The position numbers and the translations under genes were made by a program. Below the pieces are notes generated by a model. That model did not search any database and was not told the DNA's origin. It saw only the letters and a program-made list of their open reading frames with translations. Positions 54,954 to 64,000 of a DNA stretch of 64,000 nt are shown one piece after another (position 1 is the stretch's first letter; each line of letters opens with the position of its first letter). Source of the stretch: a virus (Duplodnaviria > Caudoviricetes); IMG/VR virus record IMGVR_UViG_3300035507_000332. One strand, written 5' to 3'.

Positions 54954-55138
54954 TTGACGTACTTGGGCGTTTTGGGTATAATTGCGGCGTTGTGAGAATC
55001 TCTCACAGATGCGTCATAGGAAACTGTGTTGTGCAACCGCATCCGTCTGGAGTTATCATAATCTAACAAAGGGAAACATATTAGGTAAAAGTTCAACCGT
55101 CGGACCTAGAGTTTAGGTTCGGCGGTTGTTCTTTATTT
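54954..55138 (+). ncRNA. putative structured sRNA 1 (about 54989-55135), coordinates include its promoter
   Basis: TTGACG-17-TATAAT, nested stems with a GAAA tetraloop, 15-bp terminator. Confidence 0.55.
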
Positions 55139-55214
55139 AAGCCTACTACTATATATATAGTGTGTGCAAAAAACTATCTTGCGCCCGAGTACGGTTTTGC
55201 TGTAAAATTTAATT

Positions 55215-55877
55215 ATGAGTACCGCATACTTCGTCGGTTCGCTCGACCCGACCAACCTTACGCCATCAACTGGAATTCTCATCCACGAAAGCTTCATTGA
55301 CTACTACAGGGAAGGCAAGAAGATCGCCCAGGTACACATCGGACGTTCTTGCAATCACTACCCTTGGTTGAATACCGACAAACGAACTGATATCGTCAAG
55401 TGGGCGCATGTCGGCGAGTTATATTCTTCCAGAGTCTGGAGAGCTTGCCGTAATGGTGAACTCAACCTGATCGACTTCTTGAGCAATGACCGATTCTGGG
55501 TGGACGAATCTCTGGTGGCTAACAAGAAGAACGCCTCGCCTGAAGATGTCAAGCAAAAGCGTCTGCTCAAAAAAAAGAAAAACAAACAAAATAAAAAGCT
55601 TGACAAACTCGCAGCTAAAGAGGAATTCTCCGACATGGACTCTCCATCTTGTCAAGAAATTTCTAACCAGGACGACTTCACCCACGACCTCCTCGATGAT
55701 GATTCTCTCGGCGTCCTCGCTGTCTGTCAGACTATCGACTTCCTCGACGACTCGCCCACCGACTACGCCAAGAAACTGAACGAAGCTCTCTCCAACTCCT
55801 CGCCCACTTCAACTTCTGTCCTCACCGACGATTTCATCATTGAAGATTTTTTCACTCCTGAGCAAAAAAATTGTTGA
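55215..55877 (+). CDS. hypothetical protein (leaderless; basic linker, acidic tail)
   Basis: TTGCGC-18-TAAAAT 6 nt before the ATG; 220 aa. Confidence 0.65.
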   Translation: MSTAYFVGSLDPTNLTPSTGILIHESFIDYYREGKKIAQVHIGRSCNHYPWLNTDKRTDIVKWAHVGELYSSRVWRACRNGELNLIDFLSNDRFWVDESLVANKKNASPEDVKQKRLLKKKKNKQNKKLDKLAAKEEFSDMDSPSCQEISNQDDFTHDLLDDDSLGVLAVCQTIDFLDDSPTDYAKKLNEALSNSSPTSTSVLTDDFIIEDFFTPEQKNC

Positions 55878-56157
55878 CTCCTGCGCCCGACTGCGCTATA
55901 ATTCCGTCGTTCCAAATAGGAATGAGTTGAGGTCAACCCCAACGGTTTGCCTTTTCGTTCATAGTTCGTCTTTCCGTTGTCGGCTGAACTCCTCATTCTA
56001 ATTAGCGAACGGTCTGTCGTCGAGAGACGGTGGTATCCATGATTGAATTGAGTTAAAGCAGGTCTCTTGCTTCTCGCTCGGATTCTCTGAAGGTTTTTAT
56101 TGTTGTTTCTTTTCCCTTCTGTGAGTTCGGCTGAAGTAGGAGGCCTGTTTTATTTTT
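55874..56157 (+). ncRNA. putative structured sRNA 2 (about 55909-56157), coordinates include its promoter
   Basis: TTGACT-17-TATAAT, two long G.U-containing hairpins with pyrimidine-rich loops, terminal T run, no sizeable + strand ORF. Confidence 0.72.
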
Positions 56158-56161
56158 CGCT

Positions 56162-56598
56162 AAAAACCCCTGGGAATTTTTGAAAGCCCTAAATAATGCG
56201 TGCGCTCCGCTGCTCGCTCGATTTTTCGGAGGTGCGTACTACTACAGTTGGTAAATTCCCCTGCTGTTGGACAAATTCCCCTGCGAATTTTTTGTCGCCT
56301 AAATAATAGACCTCGCCCATTTTCTCAAAATTCCCCTGGACTTTTTTCGCTTCCCTAAATATACTTCCCTGTGCAAAATTTCTGCGCCTAAATAATGTAG
56401 GTGCGTATTCGACAAAATTCCCCCGAGATTTTCGTGCGCCCTAAATAATACGTCTTCGCTGAAGGCTCAAAATTCCCTGCGAATTTTTTAACGCCTAAAT
56501 AATGAGCCGAGCCTCGGCTCGGTGCTCGTAAAGGGAGGTGCGTGTTATACATAAAAACCCCTGGGAATTTTTGAAAGGCCCAAATAATATACGTGCGC
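56162..56598. repeat. degenerate 35-55 bp repeats ending in CCTAAATAAT
   Basis: 7 copies at 56188, 56298, 56354, 56387, 56440, 56494 and 56579 (variant). Confidence 0.8.
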
Positions 56599-56955
56599 AC
56601 GTGCGTGCGTGATGAAAAGGGAGGTGCGTATAGGTATGGGGGTGCGATAAAAATTTTATATGCCGAGGCATAAAATTTTATACAGCTTGGAATTCTTGAC
56701 TGCGCAATACATTATTTCTGGGGTCAAGTTTAGAAGCTGATCAGGTACGGTTGAGGACTGAACAGACGATTGAACAGATCTCCCCACGGATGGGCTAGAA
56801 ATAGGCTTAAAACTAGCCCTTGCTGTACGGATGGGCAGTTGTTCCACTCCGTACCCTAAGGCGGTTTCTAGGCTATTCTAGGAGCTTCTGTAGAAACTAG
56901 CCACTTCATCAGGGCACAAAAAAACCCCACCCCCGAAGGGGTGGGGCTGAGAGCT

Positions 56956-57270
56956 TCAGAGTTGGTTCTTGATGATGAACTTGATTCCGTTCTTCAGTTC
57001 GTAAGTTTTGAAGTGCGGATTCTCTCCCCACGCAAGGCAATCAACCATGATTCGAGAGACTGAACGCTTGGGATTGCGGACATTAAGGACTGCGTCCTTG
57101 CAGTTACCGTTGTAAACTCGGATAGTGAATCCGCTTGCTTCTTGGCGCATGGTGATGCGTTCTCCGTACTCACCCCAGAACATCTGAGAGTTGATGTAGT
57201 CCAGAATTGCTTCCTTGACTCTAGCGACTGCTTCAGCGTCGCTCCGTACTTGTTGTTCTTTTTCAGTCAT
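56956..57270 (-). CDS. early cassette hypothetical protein
   Basis: own promoter and terminator. Confidence 0.75.
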   Translation of the reverse strand: MTEKEQQVRSDAEAVARVKEAILDYINSQMFWGEYGERITMRQEASGFTIRVYNGNCKDAVLNVRNPKRSVSRIMVDCLAWGENPHFKTYELKNGIKFIIKNQL

Positions 57271-57519
57271 AGCGATGATTGAACTTGTGGTTCAGGCGAA
57301 GGGAAAAACCGCTCTCCCTTGCAACTGCGCATATTATAGCCGAACTCTGAACTAAGGTCAAGAACTTTTGAGAATTTTATTCAATATTTATTTTACAGCA
57401 GGAGGAACTTTTCCCTTGACAAAAAAACTTCTTGACAGTGGTTCAGAATTCCAGAGCTTTTGAGCTGATCAACCACGGCACAAAAAAACCCCTTGACAGA
57501 AGCCAAGGGGTTGAGTGGT

Positions 57520-58005
57520 TTAGAAGCTTTCGTCTTTTGGATACTTACTCGCTCGCTCCTTCACTAAACGGTTGATGCTTTTGATGAGCTTGTAGTATTT
57601 CTTCCAAGTGACTTGAGTTTCATCATTGATGAAGTCGAACTTGGCAACCGTGCGGAATCCGAACTTGTCGTTCTTTTGGACTTTGCCAAGCATTGCGTAT
57701 CCCTTGGTCACTTGGTGCTTGCCGTCTTGAGAAAGATTGAAGCTGAACTGAAAGAGTAGTTCCACAAAGCGGAAGTCCAGATAGTCCATATTGAAAAGCT
57801 TTTCCAAGTGGGACAAGTATTCAAAAACGATTGACTTGACGTCTTGACGGCTGAGATTCAGCTTGGGAAGAACGGCTTCTGTTCTCTCTGCCACATCCAA
57901 GAATTCAAGGAGGCGGTTGAGGTGATAGCGAGTGATGAGCAGGTTTCCCTTCTCATCGGTGATTCCCTGAAGTGGGAAACGGCGGATATTTCTAGGGTCT
58001 TCCAT
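57520..58005 (-). CDS. early cassette hypothetical protein
   Basis: own promoter and terminator. Confidence 0.75.
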   Translation of the reverse strand: MEDPRNIRRFPLQGITDEKGNLLITRYHLNRLLEFLDVAERTEAVLPKLNLSRQDVKSIVFEYLSHLEKLFNMDYLDFRFVELLFQFSFNLSQDGKHQVTKGYAMLGKVQKNDKFGFRTVAKFDFINDETQVTWKKYYKLIKSINRLVKERASKYPKDESF

Positions 58006-58228
58006 GATAGGAGAATGATTTGAGTTGATTGCAAGGGAAAGCGTATCCCTTGCGAACTGACGGCATTATACAGCAGAAGCTTGTGGCAGTCAAGAATTTT
58101 TTTAGAATAGAATTCAATTTTTTTGATCAGCGGAAGGAAAGATTTTCCTTGACAGGTACTAACAAAAAACCGCACCCCCGAAGGGATGCGGTTGGCTAGT
58201 AGTTGGCGGTTGTCAAGTAGAAAGTGAA

Positions 58229-58597
58229 TTATTCTACAGTGTAATTTTTTTGCCCAACTGGAAGGATTTGGCTTGACACGTGAGCATATTCACGAAGGGC
58301 GCAGTATCGGCAGAAGTTTTCCAGAAGCAGGTTGTTACCGTCAAAATCTGGTGCGTTCAGAGTAGCTTGAAAGTACTCATCCCAATCTGCCACGGAGTGG
58401 CATTCATCACCAATCAGGAGAAACGATTCTTTCCAGTCTTGGCGGTTGGTTTCCACGACTCGCATTTCAACAGAAACTGTTCTTTGGTCATTGATGCCGA
58501 AGATGCGGAAGTCATGAATTTTCTTGACATTTGGAATCATGCTAGGATAGGTAGCTTCTGCCGTCATCATTGCGGAATTTGTGATAGTTTGAATCAT
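58229..58597 (-). CDS. early cassette hypothetical protein
   Basis: own promoter and terminator. Confidence 0.75.
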   Translation of the reverse strand: MIQTITNSAMMTAEATYPSMIPNVKKIHDFRIFGINDQRTVSVEMRVVETNRQDWKESFLLIGDECHSVADWDEYFQATLNAPDFDGNNLLLENFCRYCALREYAHVSSQILPVGQKNYTVE

Positions 58598-58666
58598 AGG
58601 ATTGAACTTGAGGTTGACCCCACCCCCGAAGGGGTGGGAAGTGCGGTTATTATACAGAAAAGCGGT

Positions 58667-58945
58667 TTAGTCGTCAAGTAAAAATTCAGTGCCTGGAAGC
58701 ATACCGTAAACAGTGTGACAATTACAGAACATACGCTTCAAGTAGTTTACTTGTTCTTGCGTTGAGGGATGCCCGAAGTAGTGAGAAATTTTCATGGCGT
58801 ACCATTCAGGGATAACCATTGCTTGAGGGAATTTCTTGAGTATCTTAGAAGCAACAGTTTCTGTTGTGATAATAACCGCTTCATTGAACTTTTGGTGAGT
58901 TCTGGAATCATAGATAGGAGCAAGAACGAAGGTCTCTATTTTCAT
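58667..58945 (-). CDS. early cassette hypothetical protein
   Basis: start reassigned to ATG 58945 (MKIETF), after the intercistronic hairpin. Confidence 0.65.
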   Translation of the reverse strand: MKIETFVLAPIYDSRTHQKFNEAVIITTETVASKILKKFPQAMVIPEWYAMKISHYFGHPSTQEQVNYLKRMFCNCHTVYGMLPGTEFLLDD

Positions 58946-59013
58946 TTCTAGGAGGGGTTTAGATGCTAAGTGGGGAAGAGTTGCCCACCCCCGAAGGGGT
59001 GGGCTTGTAGGCT

Positions 59014-59679
59014 TTAGTATGAGCCAGGAACTGAGTTGCAGTGCGTATGCCCTTCTGTGTACTTGCTGAGGTGATAACGTCCGTTGATTGCACCACTGAA
59101 GCAAGCCTTGCCATTGCAACCACGGTATACCGTGAGGCGGATCTTCTGAGGTTCACCCACAATGCGTGAGGGGTCAGGGATGATTTCTTCATACATGCGG
59201 TCAGAGGAAACAACCTTGTGCCCAATTTCCACGATTTCAGCGGTCATACCCTTGACGGAAAGCACCTTGTAGAAGTCGGTAAGGGTGCAGTCATAACCGT
59301 ATTGAGAAACAAGGATTGCGCCTGCCTTGAAGTACCCACGAGCGTTTGGTTCTGAGTTGGCAAGGGCTTCTTCCTTGAGGGCTTGACGTTCTGCCTTGGC
59401 TTGGTCACGCTTGGCTTGCTTCTTGGCTTCCTTGCGTGCGAAGTAGGCTTGCACATCAGAGATTGTTGAGTTGGTGAAGCACTTGGCGTTGGAAGTGCAC
59501 CACTTAGACATGAGCTTGGAAACGTTCATGCTGTAGACGTCTGAGCCAATAGCAAGGAGGACTTCTGAGCCGTTGGCGGTGAATGCGGTTTCAACTTCAG
59601 CAGGGATTTCCACGTAGTGGCGAGCGAGGAAAATCTTGGCTTCAGTGACGATATCGGAGGTTGCGAACTTGTGGTTCAT
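59014..59679 (-). CDS. early cassette hypothetical protein
   Basis: own promoter; GAILVSQYGYDCTLTDFYKV. Confidence 0.8.
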   Translation of the reverse strand: MNHKFATSDIVTEAKIFLARHYVEIPAEVETAFTANGSEVLLAIGSDVYSMNVSKLMSKWCTSNAKCFTNSTISDVQAYFARKEAKKQAKRDQAKAERQALKEEALANSEPNARGYFKAGAILVSQYGYDCTLTDFYKVLSVKGMTAEIVEIGHKVVSSDRMYEEIIPDPSRIVGEPQKIRLTVYRGCNGKACFSGAINGRYHLSKYTEGHTHCNSVPGSY

Positions 59680-60250
59680 GGTAATCTAGGAATTGAGTTT
59701 GTGTATCAGGTGACCATCACCTTCAACGCCGTTTATTATATCCGAAGTTGACGAGAGAGTCAAGAAGTTTTGAGAAAATAATTCAATATTTTTTCAGCAC
59801 CCAAAAAACAGGGGTAGATCATGGAACAGCCGAAGTTGGTTTGACGTGTCAAGTGAAATTTTGTCAAGCAGAAAATTCATCTGAGCAGATCAACCCCACG
59901 CTATCGAAGAAGCTGTTCTGCCGTTGGTCTGTCAAGAGAAAAGTTCAGTGGCAAAAGTGAGGGGTTCAGCAAAAGCCTGTCAAGAGAAATTTTCAAGGGG
60001 TAGATCAACGGTATAGTTCAATTCCCTAGTTCAACTACAGAGTTCAACTAGGCGGTTGAAGTTGGTAGATCAACCTTGGTGACATCGGATGCTATTTCTT
60101 GGCGTTGGTACGTACCAACGGAAGGCGTCAAATTGCCCTTCTTAGGCGTTGGTACGGTCAAGGGGTAGATCAGCTAGCGAGATCTCACCAAGGCTATTTC
60201 TAGGCACAAAAAAACCCACCCCCGAAGGGGTGGGCTGAATGGTGGGCGGT

Positions 60251-60634
60251 TTACTTAGTTTGGAACTTTTCAACGAACTCCAGAACACAAGGTCTGCCGA
60301 CTCTCAAAAGCCAATAGATAGCGTCTTCATAGTTGCGTGCCCTCTCCAGGCGCATGTCGTAGTAGGCTTCCCAAACGTTCATTGTTTCAGTTTCCAGAAC
60401 GTAAGCCTTGAAGCGTACCAACTCCATGTCTCCATCCTTGAAGGTGAACAGTTCCACGGGTTCAGAGATAGGCAGGAACTGTCTTTCGTCAAACTCAAGT
60501 TCAACGATACCTTGGCAAGCAAGGAAGAACTTGAGGCGGTCAAGCTCAACCGTCTGGTTGGCAACGGATGTGAACTGACTCCAAGGGAACGTACCGTCGG
60601 CGAACTCTGCGCCGTTGTTAACTAGTGAACTCAT
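60251..60634 (-). CDS. early cassette hypothetical protein
   Basis: own promoter and terminator. Confidence 0.75.
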   Translation of the reverse strand: MSSLVNNGAEFADGTFPWSQFTSVANQTVELDRLKFFLACQGIVELEFDERQFLPISEPVELFTFKDGDMELVRFKAYVLETETMNVWEAYYDMRLERARNYEDAIYWLLRVGRPCVLEFVEKFQTK

Positions 60635-61010
60635 AATCTCTAAGGGATGAGGTTGGCGTTGAGGTGAAACCTTATCACCTGCAACGTGCCCATATTATAA
60701 CCGAACTTGCCTCCAAGGTCAAGAACTTTTGAGAAAAAAATTGAATATTTATTTTCACGGCATGGAAAAGTTTTCCTTGACAAGGGTTCAGAAAATCAGC
60801 TGATCAGCTACAGGCGCAGGCGTAAAAAAACACTTGACAGGGGTTCAGAATTTTTCACAAATTGCGACGATCGACTACAGGCGCAGGTTAATTTTTCACT
60901 TGACAAGCTTCTTGAATTTCAGCGAATCGACTACAGGCGCAGGCGAACTTTTCACTTGACAAGGGCACAAAAAAAGCCCACCCCCGAAGGGGTGGGCTGA
61001 GTTGGTCACC

Positions 61011-61370
61011 TTAGGCGATATAGAATTCCGTGCTCATGTAGCTGAGCGTATTGCGGAAGGAATCAACCTCCCAACAGAATGTCTTTTCAGGGTAATGAGT
61101 CCCAAAGATGATTTGGCGGAGATCGTCAAGGAGTTCGTCCAGGACAAGGGCTTCAGCCTTCTTTTCTTCACTGTAGCGAACTTCAGCGGAGACTTCATAG
61201 TAGGTGCGGTTATCGTCTTGAATCTCGATGAGGTCAAGGCGTGAATCGGAGTCAAGCAAGTCCTTCACAATGGCGGAGTCAAGCTTGATTGAGGCTTCCT
61301 TTACCAAGGCTTGAATTGCTTCAAATTGCTTGGCGGAGACGGCAACGGCGGTATCGGCGATATCTAACAT
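61011..61370 (-). CDS. early cassette hypothetical protein
   Basis: start reassigned to ATG 61370 downstream of the promoter. Confidence 0.7.
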   Translation of the reverse strand: MLDIADTAVAVSAKQFEAIQALVKEASIKLDSAIVKDLLDSDSRLDLIEIQDDNRTYYEVSAEVRYSEEKKAEALVLDELLDDLRQIIFGTHYPEKTFCWEVDSFRNTLSYMSTEFYIA

Positions 61371-61672
61371 AATCGTGCGGAATTGAGGTTCGTTGTAGAT
61401 CCAACGTCTTGTTGGTCTCACAACAGGGCGTATTATATCCGAAGTTGAAACTAGAGTCAAGAACTTTTGAGAATTTTCTCTAATATTTTTTTGATCAGGG
61501 CAAAGAAACTTTTCTCTTGACAGGCTTTTGAAAATTGAGCTGATCAGCTACAGGCGAGCGCAAAAAATTCTCTTGACAGGGGTTCAGAAAATCGACTGTT
61601 CAGCGATGAAACTTTTCACTTGACAAGGTACAAAAAAACCCACCCCCGAAGGGGTGGGCTGAGCTTTGGGGT

Positions 61673-62071
61673 TTAGGCGTGAAACTTAGCCTTGGTGGGA
61701 ATCCATTCTTCAGTGTAGATTTTCATCTCCTTGTGGACTCGTTCCAGTAGCTCGATGAATTGCTCAACCTCGTCCAGGTTGTGGAGGATGTATCCCTTCT
61801 CGTCCTTGGTCCAGGTCATGACGCATTCATCCATCACATAGCCGAATCCAGAACTTAGAACTTCAAGGGAAGTGCGGAACTTTTCATATGTGAAGTTGAA
61901 CATTTCCAAGAGGTCAAGCGAGCAGGTGGCGAAGCTGAGCGTTATCTCAAAATCACGTTGGCTTCTTTTGCCGTTGCGGACTTCTTCAAGGCGAGTGCGA
62001 AGCGTCTTTGCGGACTTCTTCAACCAAGTTGAGACATAGGAGCGAGAGTAGTTTTTGGGCAACTTGCGCAT
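61673..62071 (-). CDS. early cassette hypothetical protein
   Basis: own promoter and terminator. Confidence 0.75.
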   Translation of the reverse strand: MRKLPKNYSRSYVSTWLKKSAKTLRTRLEEVRNGKRSQRDFEITLSFATCSLDLLEMFNFTYEKFRTSLEVLSSGFGYVMDECVMTWTKDEKGYILHNLDEVEQFIELLERVHKEMKIYTEEWIPTKAKFHA

Positions 62072-62343
62072 AATGGTGTATGATTTGAATTGAGGCGTTG
62101 AGGTGAAACCTTATCATCTCGAACGTGCCCATATTATACAGCAGGAAAGAACGAACGTCAAGAACTTTTGAGAATTTTGTGCAAATTAAGCTGATCAGCC
62201 ACGGCAAAACTTTTCACTTGACAAGGGGTCACAATTTAGGCGGATCAGCTATCAGCAGGAGCTTAAAAAACACTTGACAAGGGTTCAAAAAACCCCCACT
62301 TCTGATGAAGTGAGGGCTGAGATCGTCGCTTGGTGAGAAGGGT

Positions 62344-62643
62344 TCAGATTGCGCCTATAACTTGGGATTGCCATCTTGTGCCGTCTTCACTAGGCTTGAA
62401 GTTCAAGGCTATTCCTAGGAGCTTCTGAGCTGATTGTTGAAGCGTACAGATGAACTTTTCAACGTTTGGATACTGGTTCGTTCTGTCGTTGATGAGGACT
62501 TGGAAGCCTGTTTCTTCAGCGGATACTAGCTCACAATAGATAGAGCCGAATCTCTTTCCTTGGCGACTAGCAGAATCATTTGTCGAGTCAAGAAGGTTGG
62601 CGAGATCGTAGATAGTGGCAAGTTGGGTGTAGTAGGTAATCAT
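62344..62643 (-). CDS. early cassette hypothetical protein
   Basis: start reassigned to ATG 62643 after the intercistronic hairpin. Confidence 0.65.
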   Translation of the reverse strand: MITYYTQLATIYDLANLLDSTNDSASRQGKRFGSIYCELVSAEETGFQVLINDRTNQYPNVEKFICTLQQSAQKLLGIALNFKPSEDGTRWQSQVIGAI

Positions 62644-62700
62644 AGTTTTTTGAGGGTAAAGGTTACCCCTTGGCTTGGTAGCCAAGGGGTGAGGGTTGAT

Positions 62701-63105
62701 TTACTTGGTGCGGTCAAGGAGTCCAAGCTCATCAAGGAACTGAACTTGTGTGGTGATTGCTTCCTTGAGTTCGTTGTAGAAGGTGCGGAAGCGTTCAATT
62801 TGAGCTTGGGAAGGCTTCCCATCCTTGGCGAGCTTGAGGAGCTTGTAGGAGAAGGAGGACTTGCAAAGCCCTGTTGCAATGTCGGCAACGTGAACGGTTA
62901 CGTTCAGCTTTTCAGCGGAGAGTGCGGAGATCTCAAACTGAATGCCAAGGGCAGGAACTTTTGCCGTGCGGATAGCGAGCAGGCGGATAATCTTTGCCAT
63001 GTTTTCGCTTGAAAGGTCAAGGAAGTAGTAGGCGATGTGCTTATCTACAATCTTGAGGGAGTCGCAGATGACGATGAGGGCGTAGGCAGAAGCGGATGCG
63101 GTCAT
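62701..63105 (-). CDS. early cassette hypothetical protein
   Basis: start reassigned to ATG 63105 downstream of the promoter. Confidence 0.7.
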   Translation of the reverse strand: MTASASAYALIVICDSLKIVDKHIAYYFLDLSSENMAKIIRLLAIRTAKVPALGIQFEISALSAEKLNVTVHVADIATGLCKSSFSYKLLKLAKDGKPSQAQIERFRTFYNELKEAITTQVQFLDELGLLDRTK

Positions 63106-63395
63106 AGTAATGAATGATTGAATTGATTGCTGAGGTGAAACCTTATCACCTTCAACGCCGTCAATTATAACCGAACTTGTGGGCAGAGTCAAGAACTTTT
63201 GAGAATAAAATTGAATATTTTTTCAGAGAGTAGATCAACCGCCTAAAAATAGATCAACTGTAGAGTTCAATTCCAGAGTTCAACTAAGCAGTTCAACTAG
63301 GCGGTTAACTTGTGTGAATAACTTTTCCCTTGACAAGTGGGCACAAAAAACCCCTTGACATGAGCCAAGGGGTTGGGCGGTTCAGTTGTTAGGGT

Positions 63396-63833
63396 TTAGA
63401 TTCTAAGTCCTTGGTGACGGACTCTGTTTTCTGTATCCCTGACAAGATAGAAGTCTGAGCGGATAGAATTGAAGCCGAACTCGTCTTCTTGCCCTACTCT
63501 GTAGCCGAACTCAAAGTTCTCTGGAACTTCACCTTCAAGCTTGCTGAGCAGGAACTTTTCAATCGTTGCCGTCAAGTCTGCCATGAATGGTTCAAAGATT
63601 GGGAGGTCGTCTGAGCCGTTGGTCAAGAACAGATGAACAAAGCCTTCAACGTTGGTGAGATCAGCCTTGCCGTTGGCGGTACACTTAAGCAGGTTGAATG
63701 CTGAGGTGTAGGAGCGGACAATCTTTTCAATGCCTTTATACGTTTCATAGGAAACGTAGATTCTGTTGTTGTCGGCGTCGAATTGAACAGGAGCGACTGG
63801 ATTGACTGATTGAGTTGTCTTTGCGTTTGACAT
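63396..63833 (-). CDS. early cassette hypothetical protein (leaderless)
   Basis: ATG 6 nt after TATAAT. Confidence 0.75.
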   Translation of the reverse strand: MSNAKTTQSVNPVAPVQFDADNNRIYVSYETYKGIEKIVRSYTSAFNLLKCTANGKADLTNVEGFVHLFLTNGSDDLPIFEPFMADLTATIEKFLLSKLEGEVPENFEFGYRVGQEDEFGFNSIRSDFYLVRDTENRVRHQGLRI

Positions 63834-64000
63834 GCCCATATTATACAGCAGGTTGTTTCTAAGGTCAAGAATTTTTTAGCATAAAATACAATATTTTCGT
63901 GAGGGTAGAATCTGCCGTTGGTGCGAACAGTGAGGAGATCAGCCAAGATTGTTTCTTGGCGTCTAGAATCGACTGTAGCAGGGGTTCAGGGGTTGAGGGG

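Follow-up and report, generated by a model that had tools for sequence, protein, structure and literature searches.

An ORF-less structured RNA gene of an uncultured phage and its candidate role as an antisense RNA against the leaders of early mRNAs

The c4 RNA of phages P1 and P7, the sar RNA of P22, the OOP RNA of lambda and the CI RNA of P4 are phage antisense RNAs that act in trans by blocking a translation start or leader. The c4 and CI RNAs have more than one target site, and all four are regulators of immunity or lysogeny in temperate elements, where they act on one operon. To our knowledge, the regulatory RNAs of lytic phages are little known, and documented phage antisense RNAs mostly control a single operon of a temperate element.

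Here we describe a locus of an uncultured phage at which a consensus promoter of the host type (55874-55902) is followed by about 250 nt without a usable ORF, comprising three hairpins and a U-run that extend to about 56160. All positions refer to the window, by which we mean the whole stretch of 64,000 nt that was analysed (IMG/VR virus record IMGVR_UViG_3300035507_000332). Like the c4, sar, OOP and CI RNAs, the product of this locus would be a small structured RNA with its own promoter and terminator, and we propose that it pairs with phage mRNA leaders or starts. Unlike those RNAs, it would face at least eight separate early cassettes that carry one leader motif, in a large phage, and it has no sequence or Rfam similarity to them, the C4 family included.

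Two further systems invite comparison. In phage T4, the RegB endoribonuclease inactivates early mRNAs by way of a motif common to early translation-initiation regions, cleaving GGAG in Shine-Dalgarno sequences with the assistance of S1 (PMC9409239). Our proposal shares with RegB an early product that recognizes a short motif of early leaders, inactivates their translation jointly and eases the transition from early to later expression. In contrast to RegB, the recognizing agent here would be an RNA and the motif belongs to leaders that lack a Shine-Dalgarno sequence; the analogy is functional only. Phage lambda encodes the small RNA LPR1/PreS, which acts on the host gene dnaN (bioRxiv 10.1101/2024.10.31.621285). 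The RNA described here would likewise be a phage-encoded, base-pairing small RNA that supports the lytic cycle, with pairing that is predicted. PreS targets host mRNAs, whereas only complementarity to phage mRNAs is statistically supported for the present RNA.

A non-coding RNA gene between convergent gene blocks

The phage has a genome of about 142 kb, and 141,971 nt is the length of the longest contig that encodes the protein upstream of the RNA gene. Its gene content in the window includes the lambda-type tail genes L and J, a PIF1 helicase and numerous orphan genes, and no lysogeny genes were seen there. Searches with tail proteins returned only remote relatives (identity of 33% or less), and DNA searches of isolate phages and of IMG/VR gave no match. 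Genes on the + strand extend to 55877 and small genes on the - strand begin at about 56917, with the RNA locus at the point of convergence. On the 3′ side of the locus is a repeat array (56161-56600) containing six to seven copies of a 37-nt quasi-palindromic unit.

The upstream neighbour of the RNA gene is an orphan gene for a 220-aa protein (55215..55877, + strand), and its stop codon is overlapped by the promoter of the RNA gene. This promoter is of the sigma-70 type (TTGACT, 17 nt, TATAAT; 55874..55902, + strand), matches the consensus at 11 of 12 positions and has an A-tract immediately on its 5′ side. The same element had been proposed in an earlier interpretation made from the letters of this DNA, hereafter the sequence-only reading. 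It was recovered here with both hexamers unchanged in all relatives, and the variation among the 8 sequence variants of the locus is confined to the spacer. The promoter and a Rho-independent terminator bound a short transcript, as judged from the DNA, with ends that are predicted. Since there is no terminator between the 220-aa gene and the RNA gene, read-through transcripts would bear the RNA as a 3′ extension.

Two further features were observed on the upstream side. The region 54954-55139, just upstream of the 220-aa gene, holds a second promoter (TTGACG, 17 nt, TATAAT) with a 16-bp terminator hairpin about 110 nt further on, which might represent either an independent small RNA or a leader through which a terminator controls the 220-aa gene. 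Within the gene, the 71 nt of the A-rich segment 55545-55615, which encodes the lysine-rich linker of the protein, contain a single variable column against an expectation of about 8, the synonymous sites being frozen. This segment ends in a CTTGACA box and is similar to the loop-3 region of the RNA when the latter is reverse-complemented (74% over 43 nt).

The + strand of the locus folds at -86.8 kcal/mol with a z-score of -4.95 against 200 shuffles, versus -3.3 for the - strand. Folding recovered all three hairpins that had been anticipated, namely hairpin 1 with its 28-nt loop, the GAGA hairpin and hairpin 3. Hairpin 1 is long and irregular and is closed by a helix that pairs the predicted 5′ end (about 55909). 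Hairpin and closing helix constitute a 5′ domain (55909..56010, + strand) with 30 pairs, 99% paired across the variants, and the pyrimidine-rich, 28-nt loop 1 (55946..55973, + strand) is invariant and accessible. Hairpin 2 (56015..56032, + strand) has a 7-bp stem and a GAGA tetraloop and is likewise invariant. A linker (56033..56057, + strand) then leads into hairpin 3, which together with the U-run that follows it gives the transcript a 3′ end resembling an intrinsic terminator (56055..56161, + strand). The full hairpin 3 has about 35 pairs, six of them G.U. Its basal stem, with four G.U pairs, and its U-rich loop of 21 nt (56093-56113) are as previously described, the stem now being counted at 20 bp.

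Hairpin 3 is the sole structurally unambiguous hairpin of the RNA. For the 5′ half, an alternative consensus fold based on the alignment pairs the linker with 55993-56005 and thereby sequesters it. Both large loops are the most accessible parts of the RNA as measured by opening energy (0.2-0.8 kcal/mol, with 0.8 for loop 1); the corresponding value for the linker is 3.4 kcal/mol, and a segment in the 5′ arm of hairpin 1 that is discussed below requires 13 kcal/mol.

Hairpin 3 and its U-run close the + strand gene block in the manner of an ordinary intrinsic terminator. In contrast to the terminators elsewhere in this phage, which have GC stems of 8-11 bp with tetraloops, hairpin 3 has about 35 pairs and an invariant loop of 21 nt, and upstream of it lie a dedicated promoter and 150 non-coding nucleotides that are conserved. 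A plain intrinsic terminator was considered and rejected: the U-run is present, but the length of the stem, the size of the loop and the consensus promoter upstream do not fit such an element.

A search of Rfam 15 gave no match at gathering thresholds and only noise up to E 10, the best score (22 bits) being to a plant miRNA model whose threshold is 117. The families without a match include C4 antisense RNA, 6S RNA, phi29 pRNA, GOLLD/ROOL and HEARO. The sequence-only reading had staked itself on the RNA lying outside the known Rfam families, and on this point it stands. Neither a tRNA nor a tmRNA was found.

Clustered at 90% identity, 5.8 billion proteins gave one cluster for the 220-aa protein, and the seven members of this cluster led to 19 contigs from 19 metagenome samples. 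All 19 contigs contain the RNA, which occurs as 8 sequence variants. Divergence from the window is 0.8-3.9% for the RNA, versus 3-7% for the neighbouring gene, 11-24% for the four-fold sites of that gene and 7-15% for the repeat array. Variable columns number 13 of 252 in the RNA and 77 of 663 in the gene (p 0.003). The linker lies within 56000-56055, the longest block of the RNA that is free of changes. Both large loops and hairpin 2 are invariant in the 8 variants and changes fall in stems and linkers, although loop invariance by itself is not significant (p 0.08).

The pattern of change in the stems bears on which strand is functional. Ten of the 80 pairs vary; six of these keep pairing, in every case via G.U, and for the other four, pairing is lost in a single sequence in each case. 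The helices show no compensatory double substitutions among these variants, which are just 1-4% apart. G.U intermediates in stems correspond to A.C mismatches on the opposite strand, and therefore such changes fit the + strand only. The earlier suggestion that G.U pairs signal a + strand RNA is thus borne out, if weakly: all six of the retained varying pairs go through G.U, and these G.U-type changes (p about 0.02-0.08) are weak positive evidence for the + strand. Taken together with the six G.U pairs of hairpin 3, the U-run and the promoter, they indicate that the + strand is the functional strand.

The frames that open with ATG on the + strand after the promoter have at most 5 codons, which confirms that no longer ATG-initiated ORF exists there. 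These comparisons support an RNA under purifying selection that appears to be structured, non-coding and read on the + strand from promoter to terminator. We conclude that the locus is very probably a gene for a functional non-coding RNA, read on the + strand.

Complementarity to the early leaders

Eight early cassettes on the - strand (57268-63140) have a common design and mostly end in a GC-rich terminator. In each, a UP-like A/T tract is followed by TTGAC, 17 nt, TATAAT, a 5′ hairpin that starts with GTT 6-8 nt further on, and a leader. The promoter, spacing and 5′ hairpin of the RNA gene follow the design of these cassettes. The early leaders are C/A/U-rich, lack a Shine-Dalgarno sequence and share, in the eight first genes, a common motif about 9-25 nt before the start codon. 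One example of a predicted target is 57268..57298 (- strand), where the first gene of the early cassettes (56956-57270) has its leader and start. The remaining leaders end at start codons 58005, 58597, 59679, 60634, 61370, 62071 and 63105.

Several late genes on the + strand have AGGAG-type sites, unlike the early leaders, and the early genes may use a distinct initiation signal. In one cassette on the - strand (63830-63860), the start ATG is within about 7 nt of TATAAT, such that the mRNA would be leaderless or nearly so.

The linker is the exact antisense of the consensus of the early-leader motif, which makes it a candidate seed. Its predicted duplex with 63126-63114 has an uninterrupted run of 13 base pairs, those with six other leaders have 14-18 pairs, and the duplexes span about -25 to +3 relative to the start codons. 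Its mean duplex energy with early leaders is -13.5 kcal/mol, and controls give -6.5 to -8.1 kcal/mol (p about 1e-5). For the 5′ arm of hairpin 1 (55914-55941), the energy reaches -33 kcal/mol with the leader of the gene that starts at 58597. A profile along the RNA has two leader-specific peaks only, at 55909-55940 and 56029-56062, and in both the linker and the 5′ arm the complementarity to early leaders exceeds that to other translation starts and to random windows (p 1e-5 to 2e-3).

When 5,173 + strand windows were ranked by leader-specific complementarity, the linker (56035-56056) came first, 5.9 standard deviations from the mean, and the 5′ arm (55914-55941) second, with 4.6. The chance that both top-ranked windows would fall in this RNA is about 2e-5. 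Similarly, the best match of an HMM of the eight leaders outside its training sequences is the - strand of the linker. Judged as a conserved and accessible seed, the linker (56036-56055) matches target initiation regions beyond chance.

Because the eight leaders share one motif, the targets are not independent and the p-values overstate the evidence; the anti-leader signal effectively counts as one or two independent matches, and the linker test as one. Part of the signal of the 5′ segment may reflect the hairpin design that the cassettes share. When the whole RNA served as the query, its duplex energies with early leaders were no better than those of random windows, the signal being lost in the noise of long-loop duplexes, and exact complementary k-mers of the whole RNA occur in the window in roughly chance numbers. 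One leader has lost a base within the motif in relatives whose RNA is identical, and the 5′ anti-leader segment is buried in a stable stem.

The sequence-only reading had proposed an antisense RNA and had found no target for it in the window. Of its two proposals the antisense mode is the better served, being the one best supported here, although the significant complementarity resides in the linker and the 5′ arm of hairpin 1 and not in the loops. Correspondingly, no class of target in the window is enriched for the loops, but the linker and 5′ arm are complementary to the phage's own early leaders.

Alternative readings of the locus

The two large loops could instead be guides that pair with translation starts of host mRNAs, such as those of defence genes, on a conserved scaffold. 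The invariance of both loops, their low opening energies and the fact that the complement of loop 1 reads as a leader with a start codon are what this idea would lead one to expect, but we consider it unlikely. The loops are constant in the 8 variants while the stems change, and thus the notion of a scaffold with variable loops, as originally put forward, fails its own test. The constancy of the loops taken alone reaches only p 0.08. In the window, no class of translation start is enriched among their partners, and the pairing of either loop with translation starts is no better than that obtained with shuffled loops or with random windows. The A-rich segment 55574-55615 in the 220-aa gene resembles, as its reverse complement, loop 3 and its flanks (E 0.016, A/U low-complexity sequence); this segment is not among the 12 sites of best energy for loop 3.

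A scan of 596 Gb of genome sequence with a 20-mer of the loop-1 complement returned one match, which equals the chance expectation. At this site (L027:982-1006, - strand; JAIORR010000164.1), 24 of 25 positions match, and the ATG of the match coincides in register with the start codon of a ComEA-like gene that has a Shine-Dalgarno sequence upstream, in a MAG of the Cloacimonadota. The gene encodes 199 aa with two helix-hairpin-helix repeats and is divergent from the adjacent secA gene. However, 231 other genomes of Cloacimonadota lack the site, nothing else in common was found between the MAG and 60 kb of the window, and the GC content of the MAG is 36% versus 44% for the phage. We regard the ComEA-like start as a lead of low prior rather than as support. 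A sugar-nucleotide synthetase gene, used as a clue to the host, found no genome relative. The only complementarity with statistical support is predicted to be directed at the phage's own early leaders, and not at host mRNAs.

The RNA might alternatively bind protein, serving as a decoy or scaffold for Hfq, ribosomal protein S1 or the K-rich 220-aa neighbour by way of its U-rich loops and long helices. We judge this improbable. The loops are indeed U-rich, exposed and invariant, and hairpin 3 is much more elaborate than termination requires, yet no partner protein is identifiable. In the 220-aa orphan, an invariant N-domain (residues 1-105) is succeeded by a K-rich linker and an acidic tail; the protein has no Pfam or PHROG match, and the AlphaFold model of its N-domain is poor (pLDDT 58). 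Protein binding also leaves unexplained why the anti-leader segments occupy ranks 1 and 2.

A further point in favour of such a partnership comes from distant relatives. A profile search of 1.8 billion proteins yielded two homologues of the N-domain, of 107-108 aa and about 30% identical, which stand alone (L020:4331-4654 and L021:5072-5398) and precede a non-coding stretch, so that a gene of the 220-aa family, a promoter and a non-coding stretch follow one another here as well. In L021 the gene is followed by a TTGACT/TATAGT promoter, a stretch of about 400 nt that contains no ORF (z -3.3), three repeat units and convergent - strand genes, and the order in L020 begins in the same way before the contig edge is reached. 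The non-coding stretches of L020 and L021 are alike but are not alignable to the RNA of the window, and neither nhmmer nor blastn found a paralogue or homologue of the RNA in these two contigs or in the rest of the window. The early genes of L021 have ordinary Shine-Dalgarno sequences, and its non-coding stretch is without an anti-leader peak. The gene order indicates that the module of promoter, non-coding RNA and repeat array at a boundary is old. Given unalignable RNAs and no anti-leader peak in L021, either the anti-leader content is clade-specific or the RNAs are not homologous.

This shared order also bears on the possibility of a cis-acting boundary, to which we assign a similarly low probability. 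In such a role the hairpin would shield the repeat array and the convergent early block from transcription of the + strand, or the transcript would serve the array, which would be an origin or packaging region. The locus is positioned exactly where + and - strand genes converge, directly before the 6-7 copies of the 37-nt unit, and promoter, non-coding stretch and repeat unit are ordered likewise in L021 beside a flanking protein that is about 30% identical. The unit consists of an A-tract, a CCCC..GGG core, a T-tract and a TAAATAAT-like box, and the array includes four or five GGAGGTGCGT motifs in addition. A clearly homologous unit occurs three times at L021:5855-5990, which suggests that the array is a conserved protein-binding array, for example an origin, packaging or boundary site. 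Metagenome scans with the protein pattern gave no match, and those with the repeat-unit pattern gave five chance matches. Nevertheless, a terminator stands between the RNA and the array, and the array diverges 3-9 times faster than the RNA. Moreover, an insulator needs neither a strong promoter of its own nor 250 nt that diverge at about a tenth to a fifth of the level of four-fold sites.

The anti-leader segments could also be explained at the level of DNA, with the motif as an operator that every early-type cassette contains for a DNA-binding regulator, or the region as an inverted remnant of the 5′ UTR of an early cassette. Indeed, the - strand of 56037-56057 resembles an early leader followed by ATG, and the 5′ UTR of the gene at 58597 shares 81% identity with 55916-55941 read on the - strand. 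We find this explanation quite improbable. A decaying remnant would not show strong purifying selection, the U-run and the G.U-mediated stem changes fit an RNA of the + strand, and the - strand frame after that ATG has 12 codons. An origin of the anti-leader segments by inverted duplication is, on the other hand, compatible with antisense action.

Finally, we rejected a small protein as having next to no likelihood, since the one available frame (24 codons from a TTG at 55927, with AGGA five bases upstream) is interrupted by a stop (TGT to TGA) in five relatives (L001, L013, L015, L018 and L019) and two of the three remaining changes in it are non-synonymous, such that the constraint is not on a peptide.

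None of these alternatives accounts as well as antisense action for the conservation of the locus together with its two top-ranked anti-leader segments. On the present comparisons, antisense action appears to be the best-supported reading of the RNA.

A possible RNA-based control of early genes

In the mechanism that we favour, to which we assign a probability of roughly 45%, the locus is an early cassette devoid of any ORF, and its product is an antisense RNA with multiple targets among the early mRNAs of the phage itself. The host-type promoter would start the transcript at about 55909, and the 5′ end would be paired, as it is in the 5′ hairpins of the early mRNAs. Folding would give a long 5′ hairpin, the small hairpin with the GAGA loop and a terminator hairpin of great length, and the transcript would end at the U-run near 56160. 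The invariant and moderately accessible linker (56036-56055) would then pair with the leader motif common to the early mRNAs that lack a Shine-Dalgarno sequence, and the 5′ arm (55914-55941) might pair as well once its stem opens. Because the predicted duplexes cover about -25 to +3, they would block binding of the 30S subunit or create a double-stranded site for an RNase. As the stable RNA accumulates, the whole early battery would be damped or shut off together. The promoter looks early, and the RNA would consequently be made alongside its supposed targets, which counts against this mechanism. The invariant U-rich loops might add a second activity, for example against a host target or in the capture of S1 or Hfq.

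We propose more tentatively that the locus represents an RNA-based early shut-off of a lytic phage, wherein a leader without a Shine-Dalgarno sequence serves as the ‘address’ and its antisense is carried on the invariant linker of an RNA from an ORF-less cassette. The prediction is specific, consisting of a seed of 13-16 nt and eight named leaders. Even if the mechanism is wrong, the locus remains a strongly constrained phage RNA gene that belongs to no family. If it is right, a single RNA would time or cap the whole early battery, doing as an RNA what the protein RegB does in T4. It would also point to an initiation signal for translation that is specific to early genes and independent of a Shine-Dalgarno sequence. 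One trans-acting RNA directed against a motif of many independent early cassettes would then constitute a new organization of the switch from early to later gene expression.
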